Source: Ophelia neglecta (Eukaryota). From it: a stretch of 64,000 nt of DNA. The notes under the pieces were generated by a model. The model was not told the origin of the DNA. It searched no databases and saw only the letters and a program-made list of their open reading frames with translations. The first letter of the stretch is position 1, and the number at the start of each line of letters is the position of its first letter. Below are positions 8,564 to 64,000 of this stretch, in pieces. Both the position numbers and the translations under genes were made by a program. The stretch lies in NCBI GenBank assembly GCA_965285935.1, contig OZ260666.1, positions 42,408,001 to 42,472,000 of the forward strand. Reading direction: 5' to 3'.

Positions 8564-8606
8564 ATGAAGACGTTTCTATTCGTGCTTGTTCTAGCGGCCA
8601 TCGTTG
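8564..8606 (+). CDS. Gene 1 signal-peptide exon (MKTFLFVLVLAAIV + G)
   Basis: Acceptor TTTTTCTAG (8557), ATG at 8564, hydrophobic h-region, phase-1 donor G|GTAAGT at 8607. Confidence 0.85.
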
Positions 8607-9512
8607 GTAAGTAGACACTCCTCTTTTATAACCTACCTCTGGATAAAAAGCATAAACAGTTTCTTGCAGATTTGAATTGGACTTTATATTATAAAAGCGA
8701 GTATAGTTTGTTTATATTATGTGCATTAATCAGGGAGGGTAGGGGCAAAAAACGGCAAAGCACTATTTTGCTATTTAGCTGTATTTATTTTTTTCCTCAC
8801 TTGTTTTGAAGAGCTACTCGGCATATTTGATAGAAATATTGAATTTGGCGATTGTTCCTCTTAATCGATTTCATTTAATTATAAATTGGGCCGGAGTGGT
8901 ATAAAAGAAAAAGTCAAAAATTTCATAAATACAGTGAATCATTGCAACAGTTAATGAAAGTACATAAGCTCCTACATCCAAGATGTTTATATGAGTAAGT
9001 CGGTCTATCATTTTAAATTTGGAGATAAAGCAGACAGATAGGTCAAATATAACAACACTTTTAACCTAAGCCGCACTCTTGGGGCATGACCGGACACTAT
9101 GAAAGGGACAAGTACCACTTCAAATACCACCACTTGTCCCCAAGACGGGCAAAACCGGACCCTTCAAAATACATACAAAAGGCAATTGTTCTTTAATCAC
9201 ATACGAATTTGTCCTATTTGGGTCCGCTCTCCCCTACCTTGCTTGAAAATCCCTATACGAGATTATATTTATCAATCACCTCCCCCGCCCTCCCCCCACC
9301 TCATCAAGGGTCGGTCCCTTAATACTATTCTTTAAATTTGTTTCGTCTATATTGACTTTTTATAAAGCCTAAACCGGATACACGTTAAATGTAAAACGGC
9401 TATGACGGCTATTATTATAATTGGCTGTTGAAATCTAAGAAAAAAATTTGGAAAATATATATCTGCATGCTAAAGTGCGAACGGTGCTATTTGTCATGTA
9501 CTTTCATTGCAG

Positions 9513-10024
9513 CACGTATGAATGCTGCTTCAACAGAGGTATTAGGAGGGACAACATTGGGAGCGACATCAGCGGAAGAAACTTCACCGGTAGTGACTTC
9601 GCTGGCAACGACTTCATCGGGAATGACTTCATCGGGAGCTACATCACCGGGAGAGACGTCGATTGGGGAGACGTCACCGGCAGGGACATCACCGGGAATG
9701 ACCTCACCCGGACCTACATCACCGGGAGAGACGTCGATTGGGGAGACGTCACCGGCAGGGACATCACCGGGAGCGACCTCACCAGGAACAACAACACCGG
9801 GAGAGAATACAGCTGGAGGGACATCACCGGGAGATACTTCAATAGGGGCAATTTCACCTGGAGCGACATCACCGGGCGCCACAATATCCGGAGCAACAAC
9901 AGAATCAGAAGCCCAAGGCGGTACAACAGGATGCGAACCACTTTGTGACAATTCATCAAGTGGTTTAACATCGTTTATGCTGTTCAATCTGGTAGCCGCC
10001 ATTGCGGCCTGGATGTTGTTCTAG
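9513..10024 (+). CDS. Gene 1 terminal exon: mucin-like TSPG-repeat ectodomain and GPI-like signal (184-aa precursor)
   Basis: Acceptor CATTGCAG|CA joins in frame (G|CA = Ala) with ORF 9428..10024. It has 15-nt TSPGx repeats and ends CEPLCDNSSSGLTSFMLFNLVAAIAAWMLF*. Confidence 0.88.
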
Positions 10025-16436: not shown

Positions 16437-16485
16437 ATGAAGTCACAGTTCCTTCTTTTTGGGGTCGTCCTCCTGGCTATCATTG
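16437..16485 (+). CDS. Gene 2 signal-peptide exon (MKSQFLLFGVVLLAII + G)
   Basis: Acceptor TTTCTTTGCAG (16431), ATG at 16437, phase-1 donor G|GTAATT at 16486. Confidence 0.85.
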
Positions 16486-17655
16486 GTAATTAAATATTTA
16501 TACACATTTATTGAAAAATCTTTTGTTTTACCAAAATAGTCAGAAAGCAAGCACGCTTGCTAGTACGTAATGAAAAGGGTTAACCTATGTGCTATGGCCT
16601 AGAGCATCCATATTTTGTCTGCTTTCCTGGCTACTACGTTGTTTTCATGAATAGGATAATTAGATGAGACTCCGGCCCGACAGTATAAAAGGCGGGGAGG
16701 GCGAGTATGAAATTCCCCCTTTCCCTCTTTCCTGATCCCGCCGTTATCTCATTATCGCGCAACGCTGATCCCGTCCAGATGTCATTCAAAAAATAGATTT
16801 GACCTTCCACTTCCAGATTTCATTTAGGGATTGGTCATTTAATATAATACGGGGAGGAATGGAGTGCATTTACTTTTTAGGGCACTCATAGGGGGTCACT
16901 AATTTTTTCGAACCGCAGGGGAGTGTATCAATAGAAAAAACTACAAACCATTAGTATTTTAACTCAAATTGTGAAATTGATACAGTACAATTGATATGTA
17001 CCTAATGTTCTTTTTTTACTACAGGGGCGTCACAAACAATGAATTTGATGACATTTTATTTGACATTGACCTCGTTATAAAGGTCTTATTTAAATTATAA
17101 ACATTGGGTGCATTCATATTCTTTGACACTGTATGATAACATATGAAGGTAATGTAGTTGTAACCTTCTTTAAAAATTGGCCCATATTAGAGGTTTAATG
17201 ATTCATTTACATCTTCTCCTAATGGCTTAAAGTGCAATATGGACATATCACATTTATTAACCAATATTGGGAAATCACATGCAAAGGATCCTTTGGTGAT
17301 CTTAAATGGGATTATTGGGGTTTAGGGTGGGGGTTTGGTCGGGCGACATCTATTGCATTTGCCGATCACAAGGGGATGGGGGGGGGGGGGCATCAATTGA
17401 AATTCACTTGAGGCAATCTTTACCAAGTCCCCATACCCACGCCTGTTGATAAGTGATCGGATCCTTTCCAAGTGTTAAAAAACAATTACAGAGTTAAATA
17501 GACAACGGTATAGAAATGTTGGCTGTATTTATCATACGCCTATTGTATACCTGCTCCTATTCCTCTTTTATCTTTTATAACAATAAAAAGGACAAGGATA
17601 ATTCAACTGCATTTATTTATTAATCATTCAAAACAACTGGCAATGTGTATTTCAG

Positions 17656-17861
17656 CTCTCGGGCATTCGGGCAGCTCTTCAGTGGCCCCGTCTGAAGGGG
17701 GATCGATCGATTCATCGACCTCAACGTCAACATCATCATCAACCCAGTCGTCTCCATCGGGTGGAGGTGGCAGCACAACTCCTAGTAAATCCTCTGCCAT
17801 CTTTTCATCGTTTAAGATGGTCAGTGTTTTTGCAGCCTTGGTGGCTGGTATGTTGTTCTAG
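17656..17861 (+). CDS. Gene 2 terminal exon: Ser-rich ectodomain and GPI-like signal (84-aa precursor)
   Basis: Acceptor TTTCAG|CT (G|CT = Ala) is in frame with ORF 17643..17861. It ends ...VFAALVAGMLF*, and the final ATGTTGTTCTAG is identical to gene 1. Confidence 0.87.
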
Positions 17862-25890: not shown

Positions 25891-25939
25891 ATGTATACCA
25901 AGTTTATTGTAGCGAGTGTCTTGTTATTGGGCGTCATTG
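25891..25939 (+). CDS. Gene 3 signal-peptide exon (MYTKFIVASVLLLGVI + G)
   Basis: Acceptor TTTTACAG (25881), ATG at 25891, donor G|GTAAGT at 25940. Confidence 0.9.
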
Positions 25940-26177
25940 GTAAGTTGTCCTTTAATTGCAAAGAGCTTATTTGGCAAATAAAATTCGGAAGGCTTAGTCA
26001 CATTTTACAATTGTAAGTTTCTTATTTACAGAAATGCATACGAAGAATAATATATATATACTATATTTACAAGCAAGTGTGTTACTGATGCCGAATAACT
26101 TATTTTTGCTCAAATAGGCGACCACCCCTTTATATTAATTGTTTTACATCTGTGTCTCTACGTTACGTTTCCTTCAG

Positions 26178-26422
26178 CAATATCAGAGGCGTCAAGCACC
26201 ACATCCGATGAACCGACCGTCGCTGTGACCGCCGGCATCACTAACGGTGAAACAGACACATCAAACCCCAATGCAGGCGGCAACACCGATGGTGGGACAG
26301 ACACAACAAACCCCAATCAAACGGATGGCGCCTCCCCCGACACTCCGGACAACGGTTCCATGCCGTTGCAGGGAATGTTCCTGGTGTCCCTGGTAATGGC
26401 ACTACTTGGTCAACTGCTCTAA
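26178..26422 (+). CDS. Gene 3 terminal exon: Thr/Asp/Asn-rich ectodomain and GPI-like signal (97-aa precursor)
   Basis: Acceptor TTTCCTTCAG|CA gives AISEASSTT...; the exon ends DNGSMPLQGMFLVSLVMALLGQLL*. Confidence 0.9.
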
Positions 26423-26452
26423 ACCCATCACCATCCAGCGACAGGAAACGAA

Positions 26453-26530
26453 GCCCTGATGTCGTGACGTCACTCCTTGATACTTATGACAAAATTATTA
26501 AGTGGGACTGCGTCAGGATGATATGACGGT
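26453..26530 (+). promoter_or_regulatory. Conserved 3'UTR stem element (gene 3 copy)
   Basis: GCCCTGATGTCGTGAC ... GTCAGGATGATATGACGGT; homologous copies in genes 5, 6 and 7. Confidence 0.6.
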
Positions 26531-27203: not shown

Positions 27204-27227
27204 TGTAGCTTCCTACATGAAAATAAA
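27204..27227 (+). terminator. Gene 3 poly(A) signal with upstream hairpin
   Basis: TGTAG-CTTC-CTACA followed by AATAAA at 27222; the context is conserved in genes 5, 6 and 7. Confidence 0.7.
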
Positions 27228-28296: not shown

Positions 28297-28617
28297 TAGC
28301 GCTAGCCAATCAGAGCCGGGCTAAATGCTAAATTGCAAGGAGTAGGAAAACGGGCAGTATTATTATTATTATTATTAATAAATGTGAGAACCTATATACC
28401 TACACAGAGTTGAAAAAGCTTTTTTTGATACACATAACTGTGGTATATTCCTGATGAAGCACTTTAGTATTAAATGCCATTATAAACAGATAAAAGGCCT
28501 CGCTAAGAACGGGAAATTGCGAGTATCTTGCGAGCGTGTTTAAAAGCGATGGTAAAGGGAAAGGCCTCATTAAAAATTTGTTCGAGTTTTCAACGCTCCT
28601 GTTTTCTGTTTCATACA
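28297..28617 (+). repeat. ~300-bp segment with an inverted copy at 53778-54073
   Basis: For example ACCTACACAGAGTTGAAAA, ATATTCCTGATGAAGCAC and CGCTCCTGTTTTCTGTTTCATAC are reverse-complemented there. Confidence 0.85.
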
Positions 28618-30272
28618 TTTGAAAATTTATGTATTAAGCATGGTCGCTTCCACGATGGGAGAGTAACCGGAAAAATCACTGAGAGATTACCCTAATACCT
28701 TCAGCACACTAAATCAGGAAGCGATTAATATGTCTTGAAACTAGTCGAGCAGAGCCCGATTGTTTTTCCACACCCGCTACAAAATGCATACCAAAGAGAG
28801 AAATCTGCCTTCCGGACTCGAGTACTGCCTTTGGCTCTGCATGGCAACCTGGTCTGTAGGCCTATTTAAATATATACAAACTGTAAACTAGAGGAACATA
28901 TTATAATCTCTTTTTGGCATCTTACAGCGGCTGATCACTCCTCACTCTCTTTTCCCATATTGATATGGGAATTGCCGATTGAAGAATTTCGAAGAAGGCC
29001 TGCTCATTTTCAATGGGGCAAAATCTTCACCTGAGCTGCAAGAATGCCATAGGTGGAACTTCTCACAAAAAAGCTCATTGTAAAGCTGTCTGTGGTTGTG
29101 GGTGGCCATTGTAATAACCATTGCTTTCAAACCCAGATTGTTATTGATATACTTCGCAGAATTCGTTGCGTTGAAGCGGGATTTTAGGGCCTTTGAATGA
29201 TGCACAAACATAATCTAATGCACGAAATAGCCTATGGTGAGAAGGCTCTAGACTTTCCACGGATTGTTCAATTATAGCTGATACAATTTACGGTAGATTA
29301 ATGCGATCGATACCCCTTCTTTCCCCATATTAAAGGGAACACATTCGGTCGTAACCAATAGCACCCCACGCAAATATGAAACTTGTTTATTATTCCAATT
29401 CGATGCCACAGGTTAACTATATAGAGCATGCAATTGGTTAACTCAATTGTTTCATGGTTATGGACACAGTTTCACCACCCAAGAAGAAAACTAGAAAAGA
29501 AAAGGCTTTGGGCTGGTTGAGAGACAGATTGAATTGTTTGAAAATGTATAATAATATGTGTATATATCATGGATAGTGTTTTTCTGCCAGTCTAAGAAAT
29601 TAATTTTATATCAACTTGTAAAATGGTTTTCAGTATACAACTCTCCCGGCATGTTCGTATAAAACTTAGTACCAACTGCACTTTGTTTACCCAGCTGTAC
29701 GGCCTATAGCCTTCACCAGACACACACAAATACTTCAAAATTGCAATACTGGCGCTCCCTTTGGTTTTCCGTCCATTACCAGGATTTCTCACGGACAATG
29801 TCTATACGGGTCCACTACGAAAAACAGAAAACCCTCTACTAGGGACTGCATTGAATTTACCTTTCCATTGTAGTTAAGCAATTGATGTTTCATGCTTAAT
29901 TCTACCCCAGAAATACACACAAAAATAGTGGTTTGTCGTTGAGACAGTCTCGTCTGCCAAGCCCTAAAGAAGGTATACTACCCCTACCCCATCAGATCTC
30001 CAAGGTAGAGAGACTGTCCAATGCATGTCATTGAAAAACTTATTTCATTTTTGCCTCAGTACTTTTTCTCAGTCTGGGGTTATTATAGGTTCTAGTTTTC
30101 CATTTACTTGTGTCCAAACCTAAGACGAATAACTAATAAATATTCCTTGTCAAACTAACGTGTCATTTGTTATTTTAGGGTATGCTATCCACTTAATATT
30201 AAGGTGTGGAAGTTTTATAATCCGTTGCCAGTAAACATTGTGACGGTTACTAATCAAATGCTAGAGTACTCT

Positions 30273-31410: not shown

Positions 31411-31459
31411 ATGTCTACGAAGTTCATTCTGACGTGGGTTCTGCTGTTTACAAAAATCG
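31411..31459 (+). CDS. Gene 4 signal-peptide exon (MSTKFILTWVLLFTKI + G)
   Basis: Acceptor TGTTACAG (31402), ATG at 31411, donor G|GTGAGA at 31460; 16 codons + G as in the paralogs. Confidence 0.82.
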
Positions 31460-32674
31460 GTGAGATTTCCTCTATTGCAAATGAAACTTATTTACATAGA
31501 TAACACCTCAAGGAATTCGATTTAATTTTCTGAGTTGCAATTTTTCTCGTCAACGGAGGTGCAACTGAGAATATTTTGTTAATGAAATTAAGTAATACCA
31601 TATGTTTCCAATGTTAACCATAACTGTTCCAAATAAAGCATATTTATCACTAGGGCATAGGGTTATTACAATCAATTCTGACTCATAGTTCAACAAATGA
31701 TAAATGATTTTAAAATAAGCATGCTATGTACTAATGTGTACAAAAGACATATACAACCCAAACACAAATTTATAAGATGTACTCATATTAAGAAACAAAA
31801 CAATCAATAAACGTGAATAGAGAAAATCGAGAACTGGACAATTTTTCGAGAAAAACAAACATATCCGCATTAAATACAAAGAATTGGCTTTATCCCAGCC
31901 TGACTGTCTCTGAGATTTGTAAAAAAAATCATTGGTACCTAAACCCGATTATGTTTACTAGCTCTTCCTATAGTGTGACATAAAAAGTTATAAAATGTAA
32001 CATTAGGTAAGATGGAATTGGTTGTGTGATGTTCGATTAAACGTGTGTCCACTGGACGGTCCACCAACTCCCCTAGGCCTATTGTTTTTTGCGAAGCTGA
32101 AGCTTTAATCGGCCAAACTTCCAAGACGAACATTCGGACATGACCAGTGATGACTGGACCAGTGCAGATGCAGCAGCCGAAACAATAATTTGCTACCTGT
32201 TCCGGTGGCGCTAACGCTCTTCGCAGAACTCTGACTACAGTGCTGCCTCGTTGCGGAGCTCTAGCACAAATAGCCATAGGACATATGAATTGCTTTCATT
32301 CAAAATATGACATAAATAACTCTGGGCCTATTTCCTTTGCTTCAATAAGGTTGACACTAATGTAAAAGCTTTATTTATCAAATATGTAATATCACAAGAA
32401 AAAGGAAAAAAATGCTATGTCAGTTATATAGTAAAACGCTTTTCACTCCCGGCTAACGTATATAGAAATCCGAGAAAATATCTGATCAAACAAAGTTTGG
32501 AACTGAAACTAGCCAACCACTTTATACCTAGCTGGAATTAGTCTTGCAGTTTGTATTCCGAAACCAATTTGATCTTTCTCAATAATATTTATTGCGTTTT
32601 ATACATTAATGTTCTATCATTGGTATATAGACAATTGTTGGTCATATGTTTAAATGACATCCTGTTTCTTTCAG

Positions 32675-33102
32675 CGAAACATGACACCGTCTCTACTACC
32701 AACACTCCAGCCCCTAATGGAACTATCTCGCACACTACAGCACCTACCATAACTACCACGCAAATTACAGCATCTACTGAAACTACCAGGAACACTACAG
32801 CACCTACCATAACTACCACGCAAATTACAGCATCTACTGAAACTACCAGGAACACTACAGCACCTACCATAACTACCACGCAAATTACAGCATCTACTGA
32901 AACTACCAGGAACACTACAGCACCTACCATACACACCCCATGGCCACCAACTGTGCATTTAACCGGTGAGATAACGGGCGCTCCCTCTGCCACCGGCGTC
33001 TCAGAACCCGAACCCACTGTGCTAGAAAATGCTTCCACGCAACTGAAGGGAATTTTCGTGATGCTACTGATAACGGTACTATTCAGTCGGTTGCTTTTTT
33101 GA
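32675..33102 (+). CDS. Gene 4 terminal exon: Thr-rich tandem-repeat mucin ectodomain and GPI-like signal (158-aa precursor)
   Basis: Acceptor TTTCTTTCAG|CG is in frame with ORF 32551..33102. It has 20-aa repeats and ends ENASTQLKGIFVMLLITVLFSRLLF*. Confidence 0.87.
32732..32931 (+). repeat. Coding VNTR, 60-bp unit x ~3.3 (TTAPTITTTQITASTETTRN)
   Basis: Sequence lines 32761, 32821 and 32881 repeat exactly. Confidence 0.97.
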
Positions 33103-33925
33103 ACGTTAAGACCGGATGCCGAGACGTTACGTCTAGATGACAAAAAAATGATTGGAAAAAATTGGAACTAAAAACCCAGTTGCAGCAGATGAATGTCTAT
33201 GCAGGCTTGTCTTGGTTAGAGCCTAGCTATGGTGCCGAGCCGCGCCCGGTATTATTTTATAATCAAGTATACTCGCCTTCATGATGAGTTAATTACGTTT
33301 GCTGGGTAACTATTAAGTATAACTGTTAGTATGATGAAGGTAGAGACTTGGATCGAACGTAGCTATACTAAGTATTTACAAACACATTATGTTATTGATA
33401 TCTAGATTTTTTATCACGGAAACAAGTTCTGAACGGTGGCTTATCATTGCCTACACCAGAGGTGGCTGTATTTTGTGTTTTATGTGCTGAAAAGGAGAGT
33501 ATATGAAACAAAGCATGACGATATGCCTAAATCTTGAAGTTTAAAGAATCTTTATAGTTCTCGGCAAAGGATTTTGAATGAACATTGAATGTATAGTTTT
33601 GCTTTTTAATAAAGCGAAATTGCAGTTTATATATTTTTTTTGTGTGAAAAATAAATACTTAATAATTAATGTAGACTTTATGATCCTACTCAAGACAAGG
33701 ATTTGGCTACTTTGGGCAATCAGCCACTTCCTGTTTAACATGGTAGGCATGGTACAATTCAGAGATGAATAATGTCTGTGCCGTGATTGGTCGGGAGCCG
33801 GCAGTATTTTTCTAAACAGAATAAGCACATGGCACATGGCCACGATGGTCTGTTCAGCAGCACCAGCACAGTCTGCACTGAGGAGAGAGCTACAGACAAG
33901 GAGTTTTGGAAGACAAGAAACAATC

Positions 33926-34140: not shown

Positions 34141-34927
34141 TAGTAACGTTAATATTATTTTGTTTTCTTTCCTATTGTATTGGGGTTGTGGCGGGCTGGG
34201 ATAAAAAAAATCTCTCCGACGAGCCGCGGGCCGGGCCGGGCCGAGCACATTAGGTCAAGTCTCTCCTCGCAATGAAAGGCCATCACCGCGAATTATTATT
34301 TTGTAACACGTACACAATTTATATTTTTTTGAAATACTTATATAATTTTTAGGCATAAAAGTGATTAACACATTATCGGCAGATTTGCCTAATAAGGGGA
34401 ACTTTCTCTCCACTTCGCATGTCTGCGTAAACATGAATATCGTTTCTTTCCAAAAAGACTTCGCAAAGTTTAAAAAAGGTTTTTTTTTAGCCTGATTCCA
34501 ACAGGCAATGGGTGGCCAGAAGGTGTTCATGGTCGTTTATATGTTTTTTCTCTCGTCGAATCACAAGGCCAACAGTAATTATGAAACATTTTCCTTCCTT
34601 ACCTGAAAAGAGTTTATTTAGGAATGAAGGAAAGGGGTTTCTTCATAATTGACACTTTCTTATATACATATATACACCATATTTAAAGTTTGGTTCAGGT
34701 TATTTTCCCCAGTTTAGGAGATATTCAAGTGCGCGTGCACTAACATATTCCATTCAGAATTTTGCCAAATTCTAATATTTGGAAGCAGTTAACTTTATTT
34801 CTGTTCAATTACGCATCAAAGTACCTTTTGTCTGATATGAGTAATATATTATGACCAACATATTATTTTTGATGTGTGCCCTTGAAATAAATAAAAAAAA
34901 GTATTAAATAATCATTCTTGACGGATG

Positions 34928-34950
34928 TTTATTTCATGTAACGAACTACA
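34928..34950 (-). terminator. Gene 5 poly(A) signal with upstream hairpin
   Basis: Minus strand reads TGTAG-TTCG-TTACA TGA AATAAA. Confidence 0.7.
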
Positions 34951-35207
34951 GTCATCTCATCCCATTACAGCATAAAATACAGCTCAATATATAATGAAAC
35001 ATTTAATAAAGGCAGTTATAGCAACTAGATAAGCTGTTATGGTTATGAAAATGTTTACAAATAAAGGTCAGGATCATATTAGCAAATATGGTTTGGTTTG
35101 CAGAAAAGAATTATCAATATAATGTTGTAGTTTTGAAATTCTGCTTCATTTGTAATTATTAGAGTCAATATATTTAAGTATATCAACACAATCCAGAAGA
35201 TGACGAT

Positions 35208-35284
35208 ACCGTCATATCGCCGTGACACAAGGTCAAAACCTTTCAGGCTTTCAGCCATTCGGTAGTGACGTCACGACATCCGGT
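35208..35284 (-). promoter_or_regulatory. Conserved 3'UTR stem element (gene 5 copy)
   Basis: Minus strand reads ACCGGATGTCGTGAC ... GTCACGGCGATATGACGGT. Confidence 0.65.
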
Positions 35285-35312
35285 CTTCACATCTTTTAAC
35301 TATATGGGTCTG

Positions 35313-35608
35313 TTAGTGTGATCTTTGGACCAGTCGAGAGAGCGGAGACAGAACCAGGGACACCACCAGCACGTGCTGACAATGAATGGTATAGCAGCCA
35401 TTATCCAAACTAGGAGTGCTGGTTTCAGGTGTGTCCGCCGTCGCGGGAACCGTTGCGGTTCCTGTTTGGGTTCCCCCCGGGCTGGTCCCTGTGTTTGTAT
35501 TCTCAATAGGCACTGTGGTGGATCCCGTGTTTGTACCGTTGAATGTCGTAGGTTCCCTAGTCGAATCGTCTGGAGCCATGCTCGCCGTAGTTGATGCCTC
35601 AGTCAGCG
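35313..35608 (-). CDS. Gene 5 terminal exon: Thr-rich ectodomain and altered GPI-like signal (114-aa precursor)
   Basis: Acceptor GTTTTCAG|CG gives ALTEASTT..., in frame with ORF 35313..35666. It ends DNGCYTIHCQHVLVVSLVLSPLSRLVQRSH*. Confidence 0.85.
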
Positions 35609-36230
35609 CTGAAAACACAATGTTATTTGAATATATACATAATAGAAATATTATGTCTATGATCATGCTTTATGGCTTATAATCTTTACTTGACACGCGT
35701 GCCAAGGTTGAATTTTGTCGAATGGAATAGGGTCTTAGTTTTATTGATAAAGTTTTAGGCATAGATCATAGGCCTACGTGTATTTTAAAACGAAGAATAG
35801 AACCAAATACTTATTTATTACCAAATTTACATATTACACCTACATATAATAATATATATATATTAATCTGGACAAAATATTTAAATTTGAGAGTATGGGT
35901 TTAAGTGTTGGTAAGGGGAAGAATCTGACGAAGAAAAGGCAATATTTCTTAAGTAGTACCCCATTGGCAATAACAGAAAAAAAATGGGCACCTTATGAAT
36001 ATGATCAAAAAAGAAAAAAGACACTTCATACAAATAAAGCAGAATTGTCTAAAATAATAATAATAATTAACAATTTAGTTTTACATATCACCAACATAAA
36101 ACAGCAAACTAGTTTAAAATGTATTAAAACGTGGCATCATCATAAGAAAACAAATTGAATGATACAAAGACAATAATAAAATCAATTACAAAAGATGCAA
36201 TATGCCTTCGCACAAAGTGATAATAATAAC

Positions 36231-37040
36231 AACTGAACTGAACTTTTATTCAACCAAATTAATAATAACATGCAAAAAAACCTATATATTCAAACCATAA
36301 TGCTACACAAAGACAATTATTAACAAAATAAGTATTTACAATCGATAGATTAGTTTGGTTGGGAGACCCCCACTAAGTCCCAATGGACGCTACCATGAGG
36401 GCCACCCAGAAAAATTAAATAAATAGAGCTGATACTGTATTATGGAGTAGACTAGAAATCGGATATAATACAACTAATGTACAATAGCGAGTATACTAAT
36501 AAAAGAGGAACATTAATTTAATACAAGAATGCACTTAATACAATACGAATTTAAAATTTGACAATTTAATTTAATATATCATAAATTGTTAACAAGGAGA
36601 TATCAGATCAGGGGCAAATACAAGAAGTACAGTTAGTATAGCATGAAGGAAACACAGTGTGTAGTAATATTAAGACATTCTATGATTACCAGTTAATCAT
36701 GGAGGCTGCGCAGCCCTAAGGCATACATAACAGTTTTCAATTTCTCATGTAATAGAATAGGTATCAATAATAAAGATTTGAAATAAGCACAAAAACTAGG
36801 AAAAACAAGAACGTTAGCCATTTGCTTAATGTGATCTGGGATTTCATTCATCTCAGAGACGAGTTGATACCTAAGACATTTCATTGCAAAGTTATGCCTC
36901 ACAAAGGTTTGATAGAATCGAGATCTATTTCTGGTGTCATGTTCATGCAACTCGGAGGCTATGCGTAAATTAGAGTCACTGAAATATGTTGGAATGCTAT
37001 TGTGTATGTAAACAAGTAAATAACAAGTAACATTAATAGG
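36231..37040 (-). mobile_element. 3' fragment of a CR1/L2-group LINE inside gene 5 intron 2
   Basis: HEHDTRN...HNFAMKCLRY..V...N.IP..IK is typical of LINE ORF2 C-termini. The 3' end has AATAAAA and a (GTTCA)n tail at ~36231-36250. Confidence 0.65.
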
Positions 37041-37326
37041 ATAATAGCGAAAATAACGCAAGAGTCGAAATATAATACAAATTTAAAAATGTATTAATGT
37101 ATATATTATTTATTATATTTCCAACGCGTGCAGTGCCGGACACGACTAATGAGTAGAAAATACTTCTAAGGGACTTTTCTGGTGTTTGGCCATTTGACTT
37201 GCTTCATTTTATGACGTTCAACCTTGACCCACATGCACAGAACAAGACCGTGGTGTTGAATAAAAAATGTACAGTTTTCTCTTAATTCTATAGGGTTTTC
37301 ATCATTTAAAATACATTATAACTTAC

Positions 37327-37375
37327 CAATGCCTACAATCAGCATTACACTCGCTGCAACCAAGTTCTTGACCAT
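37327..37375 (-). CDS. Gene 5 signal-peptide exon (MVKNLVAASVMLIVGI + G)
   Basis: Acceptor TTGATTACAG ending at 37384, ATG at 37375, donor G|GTAAGT at 37326. Confidence 0.87.
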
Positions 37376-39615: not shown

Positions 39616-40984
39616 CCGACCGATTCGAATCACGTGACACATGCGCAAAAGTGTCCGGACGTGCCAATTTGTAAAGAAATTAAGAGGAAGCCCCACCAAT
39701 GCGGAATAGCCACTGTTGGCAAAGCCAAAATGGGACACTATGAGGAGTATTTGGGTCTATTTTTTAAGTATACAACAATACTTGGTGTTTAAATTAGTCA
39801 TAAAACACTGATTCATTATACAAAATTGATTTTTGACCGAACATTTAGCAGCAAAAGTACAAGGCAAAATGCACATTTAATTTTCCAGTATGGCCGCTTA
39901 CGGCCTGGATCTCCGAGGATATCGCTGAAGATATCTGAGGAAAAATAACGTCTCCAACGCATGTCACTCAAGCAATAATACTACGAACCGATTCTCTGTA
40001 CTAAAACATTTAATACATTTTCCCACTGAAGTGGAGTAAAACGCCAACTACGCCAATTTATTTCGGTTTGTGTTTGGTGACCGATGTTCGCTCGGCTTCC
40101 TCGATGTGAACACAATTTCGCTCTGGTAAATTCGCGCAAAAAATCCCGCGTACAGCGTGAGCTTGTAAGCGAATAACATATTACCATTTGCGCAATGTAT
40201 AAGGAGGGCCCGATTCGAATCTCTCAGTATACATGTACATCCCTAATGACAATGACGTCATATAGGGCCTATTGGTGCATGAATATACATTTGGAAGAAC
40301 GGTCCCAAATATTTGCTACCATATAATTCGACATGAAATTATAAGTAATGAGTAAAAATGAAGGTTAATGCCACAATGCAATAAGCTATTTGATGTACTG
40401 AATTATTCCTATTAGTATTATAGGTTACCTAATGCCAAATCAACCTTTACAAGCCATGTTAAAATGTTCATTTTTATCTATTATCATTTTTAAGAACTAA
40501 TAGCAAAATAGTGAATGTTAATCAAGGAAGTACCTGTTGTATATCAAGAACACTTAGGGAAAATGTGGTCGTTCATATAAATTTCGTTGAAGGTAGGATC
40601 ATAATTATTATACATGAAATGCAAAGCTTAAAAATACCACAGCTGCTTGCAAAATGAACACATACGTCATTCCCGAATTTGTCGTCTCGCTCTTAACGGT
40701 CATTACGAAACGGTTTCATATTTTGTTACGCGTGCCTCAAGTTCTGAGAAATCTTCTCTTCGTAGCCTTTCTACTCATGCATGGCATCCTTATAAGCAGA
40801 TTAATATGATCGTTGCAATGCATTTTATTTGGAGAATCAGCAGCCACAGCCTCACCCACATCAATAAATCAATCCAGCTTCCAATCAATAAATAAACTCG
40901 CAAATGAAAATAAAGAACAAAATTGATATCATTTGCGATGGGAAGTATTCACCTGTTTTCCATGCGACCTCATGCACTTAACTG

Positions 40985-41222
40985 ACGCCTGACTATGTTC
41001 TGCCACTAGAGGTCTCTTTAACTAATGCCTGACTCCATTGTCCTTTTAGATGCTAAAGGCCTCTTTAACTGATTCCTGACTCCATTGTGCTTCTAGAGGC
41101 CTCTTCTGCTAATTCCTGACTCCATTGTGCCCCCAGAGACCTCTTAAACTGAGGCCTGACTCCATTGTGCCCCCAGAGACCTCTTAAACTGAAGCCTGAC
41201 TCTTTTTTCCCTATACCTGACT
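40985..41222. repeat. ~39-bp satellite units (GCCTGACTCCATTGTGCC.CAGAG.CCTC), same family as 20245-20875
   Basis: About 6 degenerate tandem units. Confidence 0.75.
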
Positions 41223-51586: not shown

Positions 51587-51644
51587 ATGATGGTTATGGC
51601 TACAAAATTCATTATTGGGAGCTTACTGCTGTTGGGCATCTTAG
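51587..51644 (+). CDS. Gene 6 signal-peptide exon (MMVMATKFIIGSLLLLGIL + G)
   Basis: Acceptor TTTATTGCAG (51581), ATG at 51587 (the ATG at 51596 aligns with the paralogs), donor G|GTGAGT at 51645. Confidence 0.88.
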
Positions 51645-52487
51645 GTGAGTTGTTTTTTCTTTTTTAAGTAAAATAGACATCTGTGGCTTATCTAAATTCT
51701 GAAAAAATATCTAATCACAATGTCAATTGCTCATGTTCTCTTTGACTGAAACGCAATTTAACCAATCAGGCTTCAGTTTAAACCTGCTAAAATTGCATTA
51801 CAATTAATTCCCAATCGCAGACCATGATCATGTGACCAGGACGGTAACACTCTCAACTTACTGATAATTATTATAACTTTTAATTTAAAATTATTTGTTT
51901 GCTCCATTTGATTTTTGTGTGAGCTTAGAACTGAAAAACTACAGTAACTGTTTTATTTTTTAATCTACAATATAATTCCAGAACCTTATTTTTCTTCTAA
52001 TTGGCATTTTTCAATTTTGTTAACATATCTAAAGATTGAATAATGTATTAGTAAATTAAAAACCTGCTAAAAGAAATTAAGTTTTAAGTTATGATTTGAA
52101 TCAAAATTAAATCTAAAAACTCTGCGAAAAATTAAATGTCATGTTAGACACTAAATGAAGTTGTCAAAGTTATAAGTCATGTTTTCCCCATCAAAAATTA
52201 GAATTGAATTGGAATTTACTTGTCTTAATATTAATGTCCTAAGGGAATGAATATCAAAATCCTCGGGCATGTAACCCTCAAAATAATGCACAAAATCAGA
52301 TCCTGCAATCATAACCCATCGTCCTCTTATCCCCTTCTCCCCACTGTTAATCCACGTCTCGTCACCGTGCTCCCCCCCCCATCACCACCACCACCACCAC
52401 TACCCCCCCCCCCCCACTCACAAAGGATAAATACCCAAAACACAGCTGATTTCTCCTCGTTTATTGTTACCATCTTGTTTCTATCAG

Positions 52488-52648
52488 CCATATCGGAGGG
52501 CTCTACCGCAACTACGACTGGCTCCGATGCAAATACCGGTACAAATGCCCCTGAGGCTACGACAGGGACGGGTGACAACGGCTCCATGCCATTGCAGGGA
52601 ATGCTTGTTATGTCCCTGGTAATGGCACTATTCGCTCGAATGCTCTGA
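52488..52648 (+). CDS. Gene 6 terminal exon: short Thr/Gly-rich peptide and GPI-like signal (69-72-aa precursor)
   Basis: Acceptor TTTCTATCAG|CC gives AISEGSTATTT...DNGSMPLQGMLVMSLVMALFARML*. Confidence 0.9.
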
Positions 52649-52679
52649 ACAATGTTCCATCTAGCGACAGGAAACGAAG

Positions 52680-52748
52680 ACCGGATGTCGTGACGTCACT
52701 TCGGATGCCCGGAAGGTTATTTCGATAGTGTCACGATGATATGACGGT
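52680..52748 (+). promoter_or_regulatory. Conserved 3'UTR stem element (gene 6 copy)
   Basis: ACCGGATGTCGTGAC ... GTCACGATGATATGACGGT. Confidence 0.65.
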
Positions 52749-52992
52749 ATCGCCATCTGCCGGATGTATTGTTTATTAGAATAGACTAAAAAGAAATTCA
52801 AGTGAAGTCTTTTATATAACTTTGTGCTACAGTGGCATTTTGCTGTCTATTTGTAAAACCCGTATTGCTCATCTGACTTTAACTGTGATATTAATAACGC
52901 TACCTTTACATTTTTAAATCATGATAACTAAAGTTGTATTCTTGTGATTTTATTACGTTGGCGCTGTCGTCTTGACGAACAGGGTAATATGA

Positions 52993-53017
52993 ATGTAGCT
53001 ATCTACATGATAATAAA
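52993..53017 (+). terminator. Gene 6 poly(A) signal with upstream hairpin
   Basis: ATGTAG-CTAT-CTACAT followed by AATAAA at 53012. Confidence 0.7.
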
Positions 53018-53777
53018 CACCCCTGTTCTGAATATTGATTATTTTTGTCTAATTGTTCATGCTTCCTCATTTTTTGTCAATTACCGCCCACCCTCCAATA
53101 CACGTGTCTAGTTATATTTAATTGCTTTTATCCCTTCAACACTTAGGCCTAACCTAATGCAATATTAACAGGCATGATAACATTATTATTATGTTCCTCT
53201 TATATTTCGGAAAGAAGACTAGCAATTTTGATTTCTGAGTAGGCTTCTTAGTGGAAAATTTACAGAATTGTAGAAACTACTAGAGACTACTTATTTTGAA
53301 AAAAAAAAAGATAGTGCAAAGATTAAACAGTCAAAGCTTTAAGCAAGCAAGCAAGCAAGAAAAGAACATAATATTACGTATCTACACCTAAATAAGTTCC
53401 AAGATGCAATTTTGTAATATTTCTCAGTTATGATAGACAAATTTTCCTGACGAAGCCCAATAGGATATGCCATTATAAAAGGCCCATAGCTAGATACTAA
53501 CGGACAGTTCAGAATAAAATCCGACCCCCCCCCCCAGGGGATTTTTCTGATTATTCTACATGCCTATTAAGTGTTTTAACTGAGAAAACAGACTGCCGGT
53601 TTAATGCGGACTCGAACCTAGACTGTTGAGTTAAAAATCATAAGCACGCAGCACTATATAAAATTCGATGCCCTGCGTATGTACTACATAGGCCTCGCTG
53701 GTTTGACAGGGGGTTAAACAGATCGGGTCCCTTTCCAACCGTGGAAACGACCACGCTTAGAACATAGACTAATTAAA

Positions 53778-54073
53778 GTATGAAACAGAAAACAGGAGCG
53801 TAGGAGAATCGGACAAATTTATGATTAGGGGCTTCCCTTTCCCATCGTTTTAAAACTCCCTCGTCAGATCATCGCAATTCCCGTTCTAAGCTAGGCATTT
53901 TATCTGTTAATAATGGCGTCGGGTACTAATGTGCTTCATCAGGAATATAACACAGTTATCAAAAAAAAATGCCTTTTCAACTCTGTGTAGGTATACATAA
54001 CGTTGTGTTCTAACATTTATTCATTATATTACTTCCCGTTTTCTTTCTCCTCGCTTTTTAGCGCCTAGCGCTA
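53778..54073 (-). repeat. Inverted copy of 28297-28617
   Basis: Reverse-complement similarity over ~300 bp. Confidence 0.85.
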
Positions 54074-57411: not shown

Positions 57412-58308
57412 GCTGACCCGCAACCCCAATATCGAACAACCCGAGAATTATATATTAGATTATATTGAAAATAAGCTGGTTGCCCTCCGGATCATACGGG
57501 TATAGAAACTGTCCAAACTTCTTCAGTATTTTGTGCTGCAAACCACCTTAACTTAAGAAAGGGTTAGCCTCACAACGTAATAATTCCTAGTAGGCCTGGG
57601 GTATCTGTAGGTAGACATATTATCGCTCTGGACAGCAGTCTGCACACTGGCACGTAAAACATGGTGGATGAGTGACCAAGAACAGCAGCGTGAGTATTAT
57701 AGTGTTTTCAATTTAAATTGATGAAGTGCATGTAAAATCACTTTTAATACTCTCCAAAGAACACTTGCATAGCTGCCTCCGGGTGAGTTACCCAGTGCAA
57801 CTGGAAGTATTGCAATCCAAACCCCCCACTTGTGGAAGTGTCTGAAGAGGGCATCGAAGTGTGCCTTTATTTACATACATGACGAACAGCGTAATATGAA
57901 GTTTCAAATATTTGGTTGACCCGCTCAATTATTGAACTTTCAAAGTTAACAAACAAACAGGTTGAAGTCGTTAAATATACCGTGCACTTGAGAGGTGGAA
58001 TATTGTGTGGTTCACTTTCCCTTTGATAAACTATGCCTATATTATATATCCTATAAGATAACCCCTTAATATGGTCAAACACTACAACACCACCCCACCC
58101 ACCCACCCCCACCCGCTTCTAAAGTGCGTGAACAGCTAATGCCCAAACCAGTAGGCCTTACGCACGTTACTGTTAGAATGGTATTAAGCGCATTCATGTA
58201 TTAAAATATAATGTCATCTACACTTAAGACACACAGGAAGCACGGAGGATCATTCAAATGCAACACTCAAAATAACCAAAGCGAAAATGAATGTTCTGAA
58301 CACGGATG

Positions 58309-58333
58309 TTTATTATCATGTAGCGAGCTACAT
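58309..58333 (-). terminator. Gene 7 poly(A) signal with upstream hairpin
   Basis: Minus strand reads ATGTAG-CTCG-CTACAT GAT AATAAA. Confidence 0.7.
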
Positions 58334-58568
58334 TCATTTTATCCTGTACAGGCGATCACAGTAACATACAGCTGTGGCATCAAATAAATTCAGAATGACC
58401 TTGACATGAAGAACTACCACAGATAAGCCAAATTATAACTTGTGATACAAATAAGAACAATCTGGCTTAGAATTCAAGTTTCCGTTTTGAAAATTAGTGT
58501 CAGTACGAACGTTTTTGCAGTTAAATTAGTTATTCCAATAGTATAGTTGTACATCGAGCAGACAACAT

Positions 58569-58631
58569 TGCCGTCATATCACCGTGGCACACCCCCATCA
58601 ACTAACGGAAATGAGGTCACGACATCCGGCA
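58569..58631 (-). promoter_or_regulatory. Conserved 3'UTR stem element (gene 7 copy)
   Basis: Minus strand reads TGCCGGATGTCGTGAC ... GCCACGGTGATATGACGGCA. Confidence 0.65.
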
Positions 58632-58672
58632 GTTGCTTTTGTCGCTCGAGAGTCTGGCGTATATATTGTGTA

Positions 58673-58809
58673 TTAGAGCATTCGAGCGAGTACAGCGAGC
58701 ACCAGTGACGTCACCAACGTGCACTCTAACGGCGTGGCGCCGGCGGTCGTAGTTGCTGGTGTAGTTGTAGATGTTCCAGGATCATTGGTGGTGGCCGCTT
58801 CTGATAGGG
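58673..58809 (-). CDS. Gene 7 terminal exon: minimal Thr-rich peptide and GPI-like signal (61-aa precursor; absent from the ORF track)
   Basis: Acceptor TTTCTTGCAG|CC gives ALSEAATTNDPGTSTTTPATTTAGATPLECTLVTSLVLAVLARML*. The C-terminus is homologous to gene 6. Confidence 0.88.
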
Positions 58810-59527
58810 CTGCAAGAAACCGGCATTTGTTTTATTTACATTTATGTAGAGCTATAGCATATATATATATAGGAATAACGACATTCCTCATAAAAAAACC
58901 ATTGATTACAAATTACAAAGAACGTTATTAAGATAAAAGTTTATTGCTAGAAGCCACTGACGTCAAAAATAGTGGTGTGTCCCATTCACACCACAAAACC
59001 GGTGGGGGGGGGGGGGTTATTTCCGGCCCTCGGGATCGGCCTTATTAATTCACCGTGTTCCGGGAATTGTAGTATTAATTTATCGTGCTTTTGAATTTGA
59101 CTTTTCTCCGTTCCTATAGGGATTAATGATTTCCATTTATTGATCTGCTTAGTTTCCCGTGAATCGGGAATCATCGTTCAAAATTATCGGGATCTGGGGA
59201 ACAACTTATTCGATATGATGAGAAATATCAATATTTTAAATGCCCGTGATTCGGGAATGGCCTCATTTTAAAACTGTGAACCGAAAACCGGGAACTCGAC
59301 CCCCAATATACCCCCCCCCCCCTCAATATATATACTGCTGCCTATTGGGGAGAAAAGGCGAGGTATTGTTGGTTTAACCCCCCCCCCCCCCCCCCCCCGT
59401 TTCTGATTCCACCCCACCCAAGCATATCTAGGTTTGGTAATAAAAATCGTAACTACCCCGCCCTCTCCCATGGCATCCCCCGGCCTTCGCTCCCAACAGG
59501 AGATAAACAAAGACCCTCTAAACTCAC

Positions 59528-59576
59528 CAACGATTCCCATGAGAAATACACACACGACAAACAATTTCGGAGACAT
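59528..59576 (-). CDS. Gene 7 signal-peptide exon (MSPKLFVVCVFLMGIV + G)
   Basis: Acceptor CATTACAG ending at 59585, ATG at 59576, donor G|GTGAGT at 59527. Confidence 0.88.
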
Positions 59577-60131
59577 CTTTAGAGCTGTAATGTAGAAAAA
59601 AGCAAATGATAATAATTTTAATAATATGATTAAATAAAGTTTCTGTTTGTAGCCTTAAAGAGAGATTACACCTGGAAGGGAAATGAAATCCGATTTTTTC
59701 TTTGAATCGGTCTCTCTCCTATATTAAAACAGAAAATCTAATATATTCACCCAGTTATTTAATCTAAGAATATAATGTAAATGCTAAAGTTTGATGGAAA
59801 TAATAAATGGCTGACGCGTGGTCACAACTTTGTAACTTGCGTAGATAATGAACTAAACACTTTCCATTTCAGTTATATTTAGATGTGTTGTTCATCTATA
59901 GGCAATTGTTTTCAACAGTCTTAGCATTAAAATTGGTTTATCAAAATAATAAGACCAACGAGGGCAACTTGGGCAAAATATTCTAAATTTTTTACAATAT
60001 GTGTCCTTTTGTACAGAAACAGTGGCACTCGTTCTGGGAATGGGAATTGTAACACAAAATAAATATACTACTTATCTGAAACCCATGTTCTGTTAATTGG
60101 TTTAATAATACAATATAAATGTACTTCTTAC

Positions 60132-60209
60132 CTTATTTGGAAGCAATGTTCGCCGTTAAAGATCGCAGTGAGTGAGTGAGTGAGCTCCGTAGCAGGGAAT
60201 ATATATATA
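60132..60209 (-). promoter_or_regulatory. TATA box and non-coding exon 1 of gene 7
   Basis: (TA)n box at ~60199-60209; donor AAG|GTAAGAAGTACATTT at 60131, similar to genes 4 and 6. Confidence 0.7.
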
Positions 60210-61655
60210 GCAGTACGTGTTGTATTATGGATACGCGTTGTATTGGCAACGAATGATATTCTGGCCCCTTAACAATGAAATAGAGAAATTATCATTGTCA
60301 ACGTGATGAAAAGAAGTGTCACTAACTTTGCATTGTGCTCTTAACTTCAATCAAATATCGTCTGAATTAAATTAAATCGGAGGATATTATACAGTTTTTT
60401 ATTTTCAAATGAACCCCAGGTCAGAATACTAATGCAGTGGAATAAATATTGGATGTCTGTCTCCAAGGTTTCGGCGCCAAATATTTTCTAACTCGTAAAT
60501 AGTATCATTGAATTCTGAATGACATTACAAAAAGAGCTCCCTTTAGTCGGTAGAAAAGCAAATTCATAGTGCAGTGTTCAAATAAAAATAAAAATTCTTC
60601 AAAAACTTCAGATATCATCATTAGACTCAAATAGCCAAGAATGTCAACATTTAGTCATTGAAATTGACTAAGTCATTGCTTCACATGGGATCGTCTGCGT
60701 TCACAAGACTGGAAGTATACTGTGGTTCTAAAGACACGATCATATAAAACTTACGGATGAGCCAACACCAATTTGTCTACAAACAAGACTGTTGGTCTTT
60801 CGTCAATGCTATCTTTTGTCAAGAACACAATTCCATTTGCCAATGTCTGGGGCTCCGTGTCTAAATAAATACACTCTAGTTGTTAAACTGCGTAATTTAA
60901 TACACTTCTCCATTTTCTCATTCTCGGGCGATGACAAAAACTAAGGGCACTCGACTTGTTCATTCCTTTGCGCTTTTTCCTATTTGAAATGCTGAACTGT
61001 TTAAAAGACATGAGCCATCATCCATAAGATAAGTTATTACTCGGATTATATCTGATACAGCTCTGGCAATGATAGCGTGACATACATGTGTATCGACGCA
61101 AAAAACCATGAATTCGAGACAAGCTGTCCTGATATACTAGAATTTCTAGACCGGCGGACTGTAGTTGATTTATTATCATTTAATTATGTCCTCATAAAAT
61201 GGTATAGAGGTTTTTCTCTTTTATTCATGGTGTTTCAAGACCAAGGGACTCCCGGGTTTGGATAAGAGTTAGTTGAAGGAGTCCAGGGCAGGGGGTGTGG
61301 GTCTTCCTACCCGGAAAATCGCATTGACTTTACACCTGGCTATGATAGCAATACATAGCTTGCAAGTATATATTTTTTTCGATTTCTATTTTTTTCTCTC
61401 TAAAAAATTGTGGAATTGACTGGCCCGAAACTATCCCCGAACTAGAATAACACACATCCTTCAGATTGCCTACTCGCAGTTTATGTACCAACTAAGTCAC
61501 AAAATATTGCTAACTTATTCTAGCTCATAATGTCCTTATAATGGTCAAGACACCAAGAACACTTTCAACGTGTTCAATTTAAAAATAAAAGTAGTATATT
61601 GGCAAATATTGAATAAATGTGCGGTAGTTTTTTTTATTGCGATTCATCACTCCCT

Positions 61656-61819
61656 TACGCTGGGACAACGTATACGCTGGGACAACGTATACGCTGAGTC
61701 AACGAATACGCTGGGACTACGTATACGTTGGGACTACGTATACGCTGGGACTACGTTTACGCTGGGACTACGTTTACGCAGGGACTACGTATACGCTGGG
61801 ACTACGTATACGCTGGGAC
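61656..61819. repeat. Minisatellite, 17-bp unit (TACGCTGGGACTACGTA) x ~9.6
   Basis: Direct tandem repeats; these explain the overlapping repetitive ORFs here. Confidence 0.95.
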
Positions 61820-64000
61820 GCATTTGGATTGGCTTTTTTATATATATTTATATATATTATATAAAAAATGCATACGTTTTATCAAAAGTTATTTGTATTC
61901 TACAAAGGTAAAGAGGGGTTTAGTCAAACCCTTCATCTCAGATTAGGCCTTTATGTTAATATAGAAACAATACTAAATGACGTGGACAGGTTCGGCCGTG
62001 GTCAGGGTTTGCGCGAATTCAACTGTATGAGTAATACATACATGTATATATATAATAGGTGAGATAATCGTAAAACAACGATTTCAAACAATAGAAAAGA
62101 CGAATAAAAGGTGTTTTTTTTTTGGACTATTGACATTATAAAAACTTATAGGCTAAATCACCAGCACCCTTTGGATCAGTCTGATTCGATTTCAGCCTGA
62201 AGTCTCTCCGGTTGTAAAATATAATACACATGGGAGCCCAGATTGACAACCCTATTTATTAAATGTAAAGTATAATAATGAATGGAAAAGTATTTTTGGT
62301 CTATCCATATTGAAACACAGTACATGTCGCAAACCATCAGGGCAACTACGCCCCCCCCCCCCCCCCCCCATCCCCTTGGTATATGTATGCACGCAATCGG
62401 TGTTAAATTGATAAACAACTTTTTCCCTCCCGGCGGAACAAATAATTATGTCGGATTTTGTCCGAGGTATTTTTTTCTATTGTCCAGACCCCCAGCCCCA
62501 TCCCAACCCCACCCCCGTCCCACCGAGAGGCTTCTTTTTTACTATAATGTACAGCATCGCCTACAATATATTGATTAAACATACATAAAATAAACTTTAT
62601 TGACATAATTCAAAGTGAGGTGCACCTCGTTCGTAACTTCTAATTTCAGTTTGGACGAAGCTATACAACCAGAGCATGGCGTTCATGAATCGAACCTTCT
62701 AAGACTGGGAGCTACCCCATTCAGCCTTAATAAAAGTTACTTCCGTAGCTATAATATGCAAGTCTTGCCATTTTAGAATCAAAATAACAATATTCAAGAA
62801 AAGTGCTTTTTTATTTATTTGGTCAAAGAGGCGGGGGGGGGGGGGGGGGGGGGCAGAGATTAAATACACAACGTCTGCCAGCTCTTACAGTTTTGCCCTG
62901 ACCCAAACGTACCCGGGAGTAACTATACAGTATATTTTGGATACGGTCTCAAAATCCTTGATTCTTACGTCCACCGGTGATATTATACTGTTGTATTTTG
63001 TCCTCGATCTGGTCTTCTTACCCTAGGGTTTCGAGCCCCGGGGACTTCACATCCGGGACACCAACTAATTTTGTAATTGTACATCGACACATCTGTCATA
63101 AACCTAGGACAGACAGCTCAGTAGCCTATGTCTTGTAGGTACTCGATTGCAGCAATACAAAAAGCTCTGGTTAATGTGAATATCTATATAAGGGCACTGG
63201 AACTTCATCAGTTTCTTAATTATAGCATTGGTTCCTTTATACAGCAATTTCCGTCCGTTTTATATAATTATTTTTTTTATCTGGTGTGATTCCTAGTGTG
63301 ATTCATTACTAGAATATATTCCCATGCATTATTTTATCACGTGAATACGGTTTGTTGGGGAATGAGATAATATTCTGATAAATCGTGTTGGCCCAAAACA
63401 GTTGCGACATTGGGAAATCCAATATCGTTTTACTTCCTTATATGAATCAACTTGTACTTCTGGGGTGCAAATAGTCTGCCCTTGACGCGAAGAAGGACCT
63501 AAAATGATCATAGGCTTACATGTGCATTGTATAAAAACAAATACATTTGACAGCAGGAAAGGTGTACGGTGATTTTATAATAATATGTATAATATGTATA
63601 TATACATTATAAGCCATATTTTTTGTTTACTGGACATTTTCGTGATTTCCTTTAAAATACAGAAAACAACACACGTTCGTTGAACTGTCTCCCATTTGTA
63701 CTAAAAATTGGAAGTACTGGACTATAGAATTAAATGGCAATGATTTATCAGAAGATAGTTTTTTTTAACTCGAGCTCTGCATAAAAATCACTGCATAACT
63801 ATAATTTGCTAGGCGAATAAAAAATAATGCACCGTGGAAATTGGCCCAATTTAAGTATGTACGAAACAAGTATATATATTTTTCCTTGAATAATGTAGGA
63901 TTGTTCGTGTAACCCCACGGTTAAGGATAAGTTTGCATGCCTATAGCAAAATGAGTCATTAGTTAATCTTATTTATTGGTCTGTAATATTTTGATGCTAT

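Follow-up and report, generated by a model that had tools for sequence, protein, structure and literature searches.

A local cluster of seven small spliced genes in Ophelia neglecta, the shortest of which is predicted to encode an ~18-residue GPI-anchored glycopeptide

Analysis of a 64,000-nucleotide stretch of Ophelia neglecta DNA (contig OZ260666.1; the whole stretch is called the window below) revealed seven genes built to one plan, in which a phase-1 intron separates a short signal exon from a terminal exon that carries a Ser/Thr-rich spacer and a hydrophobic end. In all seven genes the signal exon is joined directly to the terminal exon, which encodes the end of the signal peptide, and the precursors range from 61 aa (gene 7) to 184 aa (gene 1). 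The coordinates of the genes and of the parts of gene 7 are collected in Table 1. Five of the genes are on the plus strand, and genes 5 and 7 are on the minus strand, so inversions accompanied the growth of the cluster. Genes 1 and 2 stand apart as a subgroup that lacks the shared 3′ UTR blocks. Their 3′ ends are 74% identical over 65 nt, and the acceptor of gene 2 (17656) was picked among three in-frame candidates. In the tail of gene 5 (35313–35410, minus strand), CAA replaces the stop of the paralogues and adds four residues, the spacer carries an insertion, and a Pro lies inside the hydrophobic stretch; the product may be secreted, or the gene may be decaying.

Table 1. Positions in the window of the family genes, the parts of gene 7, and the conserved 3′ UTR blocks.
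Feature	Positions	Strand	Description
Gene 1	8564..10024	+	184 aa with TSPG-type repeats; in the more distant subgroup
Gene 2	16437..17861	+	84 aa, Ser-rich, more distant subgroup
Gene 3	25891..26422	+	97 aa, predicted mature 54 aa
Gene 4	31411..33102	+	158 aa, predicted mature 114 aa, internal 20-aa repeats
Gene 5	35313..37375	-	114 aa, altered tail
Gene 6	51596..52648	+	Closest paralogue of gene 7; 69 aa (72 from first ATG 51587), predicted mature 26 aa
Gene 7, TATA box (TA run)	60198..60209	-	74–78 nt upstream of first donor
Gene 7, predicted non-coding first exon	60132..60180	-	5′ end approximate; donor AAG/GTAAGA
Gene 7, intron 1	59585..60131	-	547 nt; acceptor TTACAG 8 nt before ATG
Gene 7, exon 2	59528..59584	-	8 nt UTR, ATG 59576, signal-peptide codons 1–16 plus one base
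Gene 7, intron 2	58810..59527	-	718 nt, phase 1, GT-AG
Gene 7, signal-peptide end	58796..58809	-	Residues 17–21; Ser at -3, Ala at -1
Gene 7, predicted mature peptide	58742..58795	-	Residues 22–39, 18 aa, 1709 Da bare; omega = Ala39 (codon 58744–58742)
Gene 7, predicted GPI-attachment signal	58673..58741	-	Residues 40–61 (22 aa), running from small residues through a spacer to a ~14-residue hydrophobic end; TAA follows
Gene 7, conserved proximal 3′ UTR blocks	58540..58660	-	Common to genes 3, 5, 6, partly 4
Proximal 3′ UTR blocks, gene 6	52650-52783	+	
Proximal 3′ UTR blocks, gene 3	26423-26563	+	
Proximal 3′ UTR blocks, gene 5	35171-35312	-	
Proximal 3′ UTR blocks, gene 4	33104-33141	+	Partly
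Gene 7, polyadenylation block	58284..58347	-	TGTAG-N4-CTACA inverted repeat, then AATAAA (58314–58309)
PolyA block, gene 6	52979-53040	+	
PolyA block, gene 3	27189-27237	+	
PolyA block, gene 5	34921-34962	-	

The window has a G+C content of ~37% and contains spliceosomal introns and LINEs; outside the seven genes only LINE remnants and simple repeats were found. A Pfam scan covered 142 of the 181 frames of at least 62 aa, the other 39 (overlapping family genes, LINE or tandem repeat) being left out, and returned two matches, a weak one to RVT_1 and a sub-threshold one to extensin. LINE-type remnants on the minus strand lie at 10959–12020 (reverse-transcriptase match, E = 1.7e-15), at 21757–22376 (weak reverse-transcriptase match), and at 36693–37082 (seen by eye only), and the relatives of the LINE reverse transcriptase are 34–50% identical. 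Downstream of genes 3 and 6 sits an inverted pair of ~270 nt (28395–28671 and 53723–53995), with 25 kb between its members and 76–94% complementarity over three pieces; it is likely a dispersed repeat. Tandem repeats at 836–1275, 40970–41211, and 61639–61853 have periods of 40, ~40, and 17 nt, and the unit of the second is similar to repeats at 20542–20815.

Gene 7 had been proposed, from its letters and open reading frames, to encode a spliced 61-aa precursor. Joining the minus-strand coding exon 59576–59528 to 58809–58673 gave a 61-aa frame whose translation is identical to that of the original prediction. The 49-nt coding exon starts at ATG 59576 and terminates at the donor G/GTGAGT, the acceptor of intron 2 is TTTCTTGCAG with the cut at 58810/58809, and the terminal exon contributes 137 coding nt through the TAA at 58675–58673. 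The terminal exon had been described as missing from the list of open reading frames; consistent with this, no minus-strand stop-to-stop frame of at least 62 aa covers it. Beyond the parts listed originally, gene 7 has a TATA box, a predicted non-coding exon upstream, and a conserved block with AATAAA. Around the donor of the first exon (60132/60131), 21 of 23 nt are the same as in gene 6, and the geometry from TATA to donor is alike in gene 6 (TATATA 49720, donor GGTAAG 49797) and also in gene 4 (TATA 30273, donor 30357). A strict pattern of TATA plus donor matched two of the seven genes (4 and 7); the first exons of genes 1, 2, 3, and 5 were not located. The predicted 5′ UTR of gene 7 is free of ATG, and an AG a few bases upstream of the ATG is common to all seven genes.

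As the junction 59528/58809 is a prediction, the gene model might be incomplete. If intron 2 hid a further exon, or if the cuts lay elsewhere, the mature chain would be much longer and the shortness of the product an artefact. Alternative cuts do shift the mature size, within 16–22 aa. We nevertheless regard an incomplete model as highly improbable. Intron 2 holds no open phase 1-1 cassette exon of 24–450 nt with a pyrimidine-rich acceptor, and the straight link from the signal exon to a terminal exon carrying the signal-peptide end is found in 7/7 genes. The next in-frame acceptors (58800 and 58797) would remove just 3–4 residues near the signal cut.

Still less weight, close to none, is given to the idea that the true product is an unspliced read-through frame of 102 aa, or that the two-exon model arose by chance. 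An open frame does extend from the ATG of gene 7 into intron 2; however, it crosses poly-G tracts, intron 2 gave no blastn match elsewhere in the window, and both exons of gene 7 match those of paralogues. On the side of chance, a loose two-exon detector found at least one exon pair in 31 of 100 composition-matched null windows, and this detector by itself is insufficient for a single gene. In the window it found 9 pairs, which were the seven genes and two passengers downstream; the null windows averaged 0.42 pairs and never held more than 4. Gene 7 is cleared of chance by leave-one-out profiles. A profile built from genes 1–6 recovered its signal exon (E = 3.9e-10), one built from genes 3, 4, and 6 recovered its GPI-signal tail (E = 1e-6), and a leave-one-out profile recovered its polyA block (E = 9.9e-16). 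The signal-exon profile found exactly seven copies in the window and no further one.

Hydropathy together with the cleavage rule placed the hydrophobic core of the signal at residues 5–16 of gene 7 and the predicted cut after Ala21; the motif [ST]-E-[AG] at positions 19–21 is common to genes 3, 5, 6, and 7. For the C-terminal end, a review (PMC7125958) gives as rules a small omega residue (S, N, D, A, G, C, T), a small omega+2 residue, a signal of 20–30 residues, and a hydrophobic stretch of “about 20.” Gene 7 has Ala39, Gly40, and Ala41 at these positions and 22 residues after omega, with no cytosolic tail. Its last 23 codons align without gaps with those of genes 6 and 3, both of which have Asn-Gly-Ser opposite Ala39-Gly-Ala; Asn occupies the omega-equivalent position in genes 3, 4, 5, and 6. 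Both cut sites of gene 7 were thus placed by paralogue alignment, through the signal-end motif and the omega-equivalent Asn. The GPI-anchor reading is supported as a prediction, as the signal peptide, the small residues at omega and omega+2, the 22-residue tail, and the absence of a cytosolic end all match the rules in PMC7125958.

Between the two predicted cuts remain residues 22–39. Ten of these 18 residues (56%) are Ser/Thr, nine of them Thr and one Ser; two are Pro, with one Thr-Pro. No N-glycan sequon was found in this part, so that any glycans would be O-linked only. Enumeration of alternative cuts gave 16–22 residues. Glu at -3 and Pro at omega+2 are disfavoured under the usual cleavage rules, and leaving out cuts with these residues narrowed the range to 17–21. 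Our best prediction is a mature peptide of 18 aa, plausibly 17–21, with a mass of ~1.7 kDa. The expected remainder of ~18 aa, more than half Thr/Ser, therefore agrees with the predicted cuts, and the ~26 aa foreseen for gene 6 were likewise obtained, since the same rule predicts 26 aa there.

Gene 7 might also be expressed without its tail being replaced by GPI, so that the product would be a membrane peptide held by the tail, or would be secreted or shed with the tail on. Its hydrophobic end is indeed short, ~14 residues compared with ~20 in PMC7125958, and includes Thr and Ser; the best 19-residue hydropathy mean is 1.66, and omega is Ala instead of the Asn of the family. Over its best 12 residues the stretch has a Kyte-Doolittle mean of 2.49, similar to the 2.59 of gene 6 and the 2.57 of gene 3. 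On the other side, neither cytosolic residues nor a basic cluster follow the stretch. Ala is among the residues allowed at omega by PMC7125958, and the distance from omega to the end is constant at 22–23 residues in genes 3, 4, 6, and 7, as for a transamidase signal. We consider a retained tail unlikely and GPI attachment the preferred reading.

It is the spacer that takes up the length change in the family. Genes 7, 6, 3, 5, and 4 have 65, 89, 173, 206, and 353 nt from acceptor to omega, all in frame. The predicted mature spacers comprise 18, 26, 54, and 114 residues in genes 7, 6, 3, and 4. A spacer that changes in frame between fixed signals would be expected where its length and glycan load are important but its sequence is not.

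Downstream of the coding region, two islands of the 3′ UTR hold 70–85% identity between genes 7 and 6. Inside the proximal blocks, the palindrome TGACGTCA is present in genes 3, 5, and 6 and altered in genes 7 and 4. A drawing of the blocks with a 10-bp stem and a 6-bp hairpin is possible, and gene 7 retains it by means of G-U pairs; the z-scores for structure were -1.37, -0.59, -2.25, -3.17, and -1.50 in genes 7, 6, 3, 5, and 4. This two-helix model paired 89% of 64 cells, yet it showed no two-sided changes and did no better than shuffles; a structure is not claimed. Rfam at gathering thresholds gave no match over the whole window, and a SECIS reading of the 3′ UTR made by eye was dropped, as no in-frame TGA was found in any of the seven frames. 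The proximal block could possibly act as an RNA element or as a DNA site. In the polyadenylation block, the inverted repeat TGTAG-N4-CTACA is near-invariant with a variable loop and stands immediately upstream of AATAAA in four genes. The block contains UGUA, the CFIm upstream element. The block of gene 3 lies ~770 nt past the stop, and a weaker second copy is found at 27893–27951.

Over 43 gap-free codons, the comparison of gene 7 with gene 6 gave a pS of 0.53 and a pN of 0.27 (one-sided p = 0.007), and the mismatches by codon position were 18/6/20, with the second position least changed. The codon comparisons with gene 3 and gene 4 were non-significant (p = 0.07 and 0.09). Neutral mutation was simulated in 5000 runs starting from gene 6, and the joint survival of splice sites, ATG, frame, and both hydrophobic ends was scored. 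It amounted to 0–0.4% at a distance of 0.35, 0.14–1.1% at 0.25, and 1–6% at 0.15. On the gene 7 branch of a triplet, dN was 0.27 and dS 0.355 (dN/dS ~0.76); private nonsynonymous and synonymous changes stood at 17:7 in gene 7 and 7:6 in genes 3 and 6. The Asn at omega is lost in gene 7, and its signal carries three Met-to-Thr changes. Selection appears to have preserved the architecture of gene 7, and its amino-acid sequence looks relaxed or diverging.

Gene 7 could alternatively be a recently silenced or decaying copy, with an inherited architecture and a product that is no longer made or relevant. The dN/dS of its branch, the 17:7 private changes, and the step from Asn to Ala at omega would fit such decay, and in gene 5 the family offers an example of a tail that can degrade. 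Against it, the promoter, the splice sites of both introns, the frame, the stop position, and the polyA block of gene 7 are all intact, joint survival under neutrality was at most 1.1% at distances of at least 0.25, and the polyA block is 85% identical to that of gene 6, compared with 44% for the UTR spacer that precedes it. Signal sequences are tolerant of many conservative changes. Very recent silencing is possible; decay as a whole seems to us not likely. These sequence features are best explained by a gene 7 that works, with three exons, as the shortest of a local seven-gene family of putative secreted Ser/Thr-rich proteins with GPI signals.

Homologues were searched for with terminal exons only, so that the first 17 residues lay outside the queries, and small spliced animal genes may be under-represented. 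The terminal exon of gene 7 gave no candidate among 5.8 billion proteins (only those of 24–77 aa), and of the 2712 candidates of a five-exon alignment search, none passed at E up to 10. A profile run against 1.84 billion representatives had a single match (E = 3.9e-4), a 1228-aa repeat protein without the architecture of the family, which was judged compositional. The terminal exon matched no PDB sequence; in Pfam it reached no family over the cut-off, with only a sub-threshold DUF1467 (E = 0.14), and PF14984, the profile of the CD24 family, was not matched at E up to 1. Two language-model searches returned nothing above 0.85. The CD24 clusters that both of them placed at 0.78 are a lead only, as shuffled proteins reach comparable scores. 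Among the matches listed, no described invertebrate cluster of this type of GPI glycopeptide was found in the open-access literature. Genes of this type would escape both ORF-based annotation and homology search.

We propose, with a probability of about two in three, that the gene 7 product is imported into the ER, loses its signal, receives GPI at Ala39 and O-glycans on Thr/Ser, and so becomes an unfolded glycopeptide held by a lipid. Established GPI and mucin-type biochemistry is the basis for the individual steps. The precursor would enter the ER, where signal peptidase would cleave after Ala21; GPI transamidase would then swap residues 40–61 for GPI on Ala39, and Golgi enzymes would attach O-glycans to some of the 10 Thr/Ser. 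A peptide of ~1.7 kDa without a fold would thus sit in the outer leaflet, with the sugars as its working surface. As a membrane-proximal part of the glycocalyx, it might present glycans that confer charge, hydration, or anti-adhesion or that lectins bind, and it might be releasable through GPI cleavage. Display in the glycocalyx is by analogy the most likely role of the product, and it is the weakest step of the proposal. The paralogues, with the same two signals and spacers of 18 to well over 100 residues, would present similar glycans at different heights.

For the family, the prediction is a length-graded cluster of GPI glycopeptides bearing O-glycans only, the shortest member of which would come near the smallest described animal GPI protein. 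A more far-reaching reading, which we hold tentatively and consider doubtful as a whole, is that an invertebrate lineage independently evolved a cluster of the CD52/CD24 type. It would consist of seven GPI glycopeptides with two common signals and spacers of 18 to >100 residues, co-regulated by a conserved 3′ UTR element with structure. In this reading, gene 7 would rank with the smallest animal GPI proteins and serve as an O-glycan-only “self” or recognition ligand, its fast amino-acid change reflecting diversification and not decay. Minimal GPI glycopeptides are known in mammals and plants, and a sequence-unrelated animal cluster, if true, would mean that the design has arisen repeatedly. 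Each origin would be from a signal exon and a Thr-rich GPI exon. The family would also be a natural length series for the minimum length of a GPI substrate and for the effect of spacer height on glycocalyx function. The kind of molecule is already known, and a function for gene 7 would be assigned by analogy with it.

CD52 (CAMPATH-1/HE5) is a single-copy gene, unlike gene 7, which sits in a cluster of seven. According to PMC7125958 and PMC6065011, mature CD52 has 12 aa, serves as a scaffold for GPI and an N-glycan, and is called the smallest mammalian GPI protein. The two are alike in having a very short GPI-borne mature peptide as a glycan scaffold, predicted in the case of gene 7, and 18 predicted residues (enumerated 16–22) against 12 is the same order of size. 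However, the activity of CD52 rests on a sialylated N-glycan according to PMC6065011, and gene 7 has no sequon; nor did the terminal-exon searches give a sequence match between them. Of the closeness to CD52 that had been put forward, size and topology stand, but chemistry and descent do not, with no sequon present and no homology found by terminal exon.

CD24 (heat-stable antigen) has an 80-aa precursor and a 33-aa mature peptide with N- and O-glycans, as described in PMC8347636. It likewise is a short, heavily glycosylated GPI protein with O-glycans, features that are predicted for gene 7, but by the same source it is longer (33 vs. a predicted 18 aa) and has two N-sequons where gene 7 has none. 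Plant AG peptides have precursors of 55–75 aa (PMC2882264) and mature parts of 10–13 aa (PMC7769824). The precursor range includes the 61 aa of gene 7, and GPI, O-glycans only, and a multigene family with longer relatives are further likenesses. In contrast, the plant peptides carry arabinogalactan on hydroxyproline in repeated Ala/Ser/Thr-Pro modules through a plant pathway, whereas gene 7 is Thr-rich, has one Thr-Pro, and belongs to an animal; no homology between them was found in the terminal-exon searches. CD24 and the plant AG peptides already form a class of small GPI peptides, which makes the size of gene 7 less exceptional.

The core of flagellasialin is small, Thr-rich, and GPI-anchored. 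In sea urchin sperm this glycoprotein is dominated by its glycans, runs at 40–80 kDa, carries polysialic acid, and is enriched in microdomains, according to PMC9630641 and PMC3528131. It is the nearest invertebrate analogue known to us, a marine surface glycoprotein, and it is likened to gene 7 by description only. Our verdict, drawn by analogy, is that gene 7 would encode a lineage-specific CD52/CD24-like GPI glycopeptide, a member of neither of these families nor of the AG peptides.
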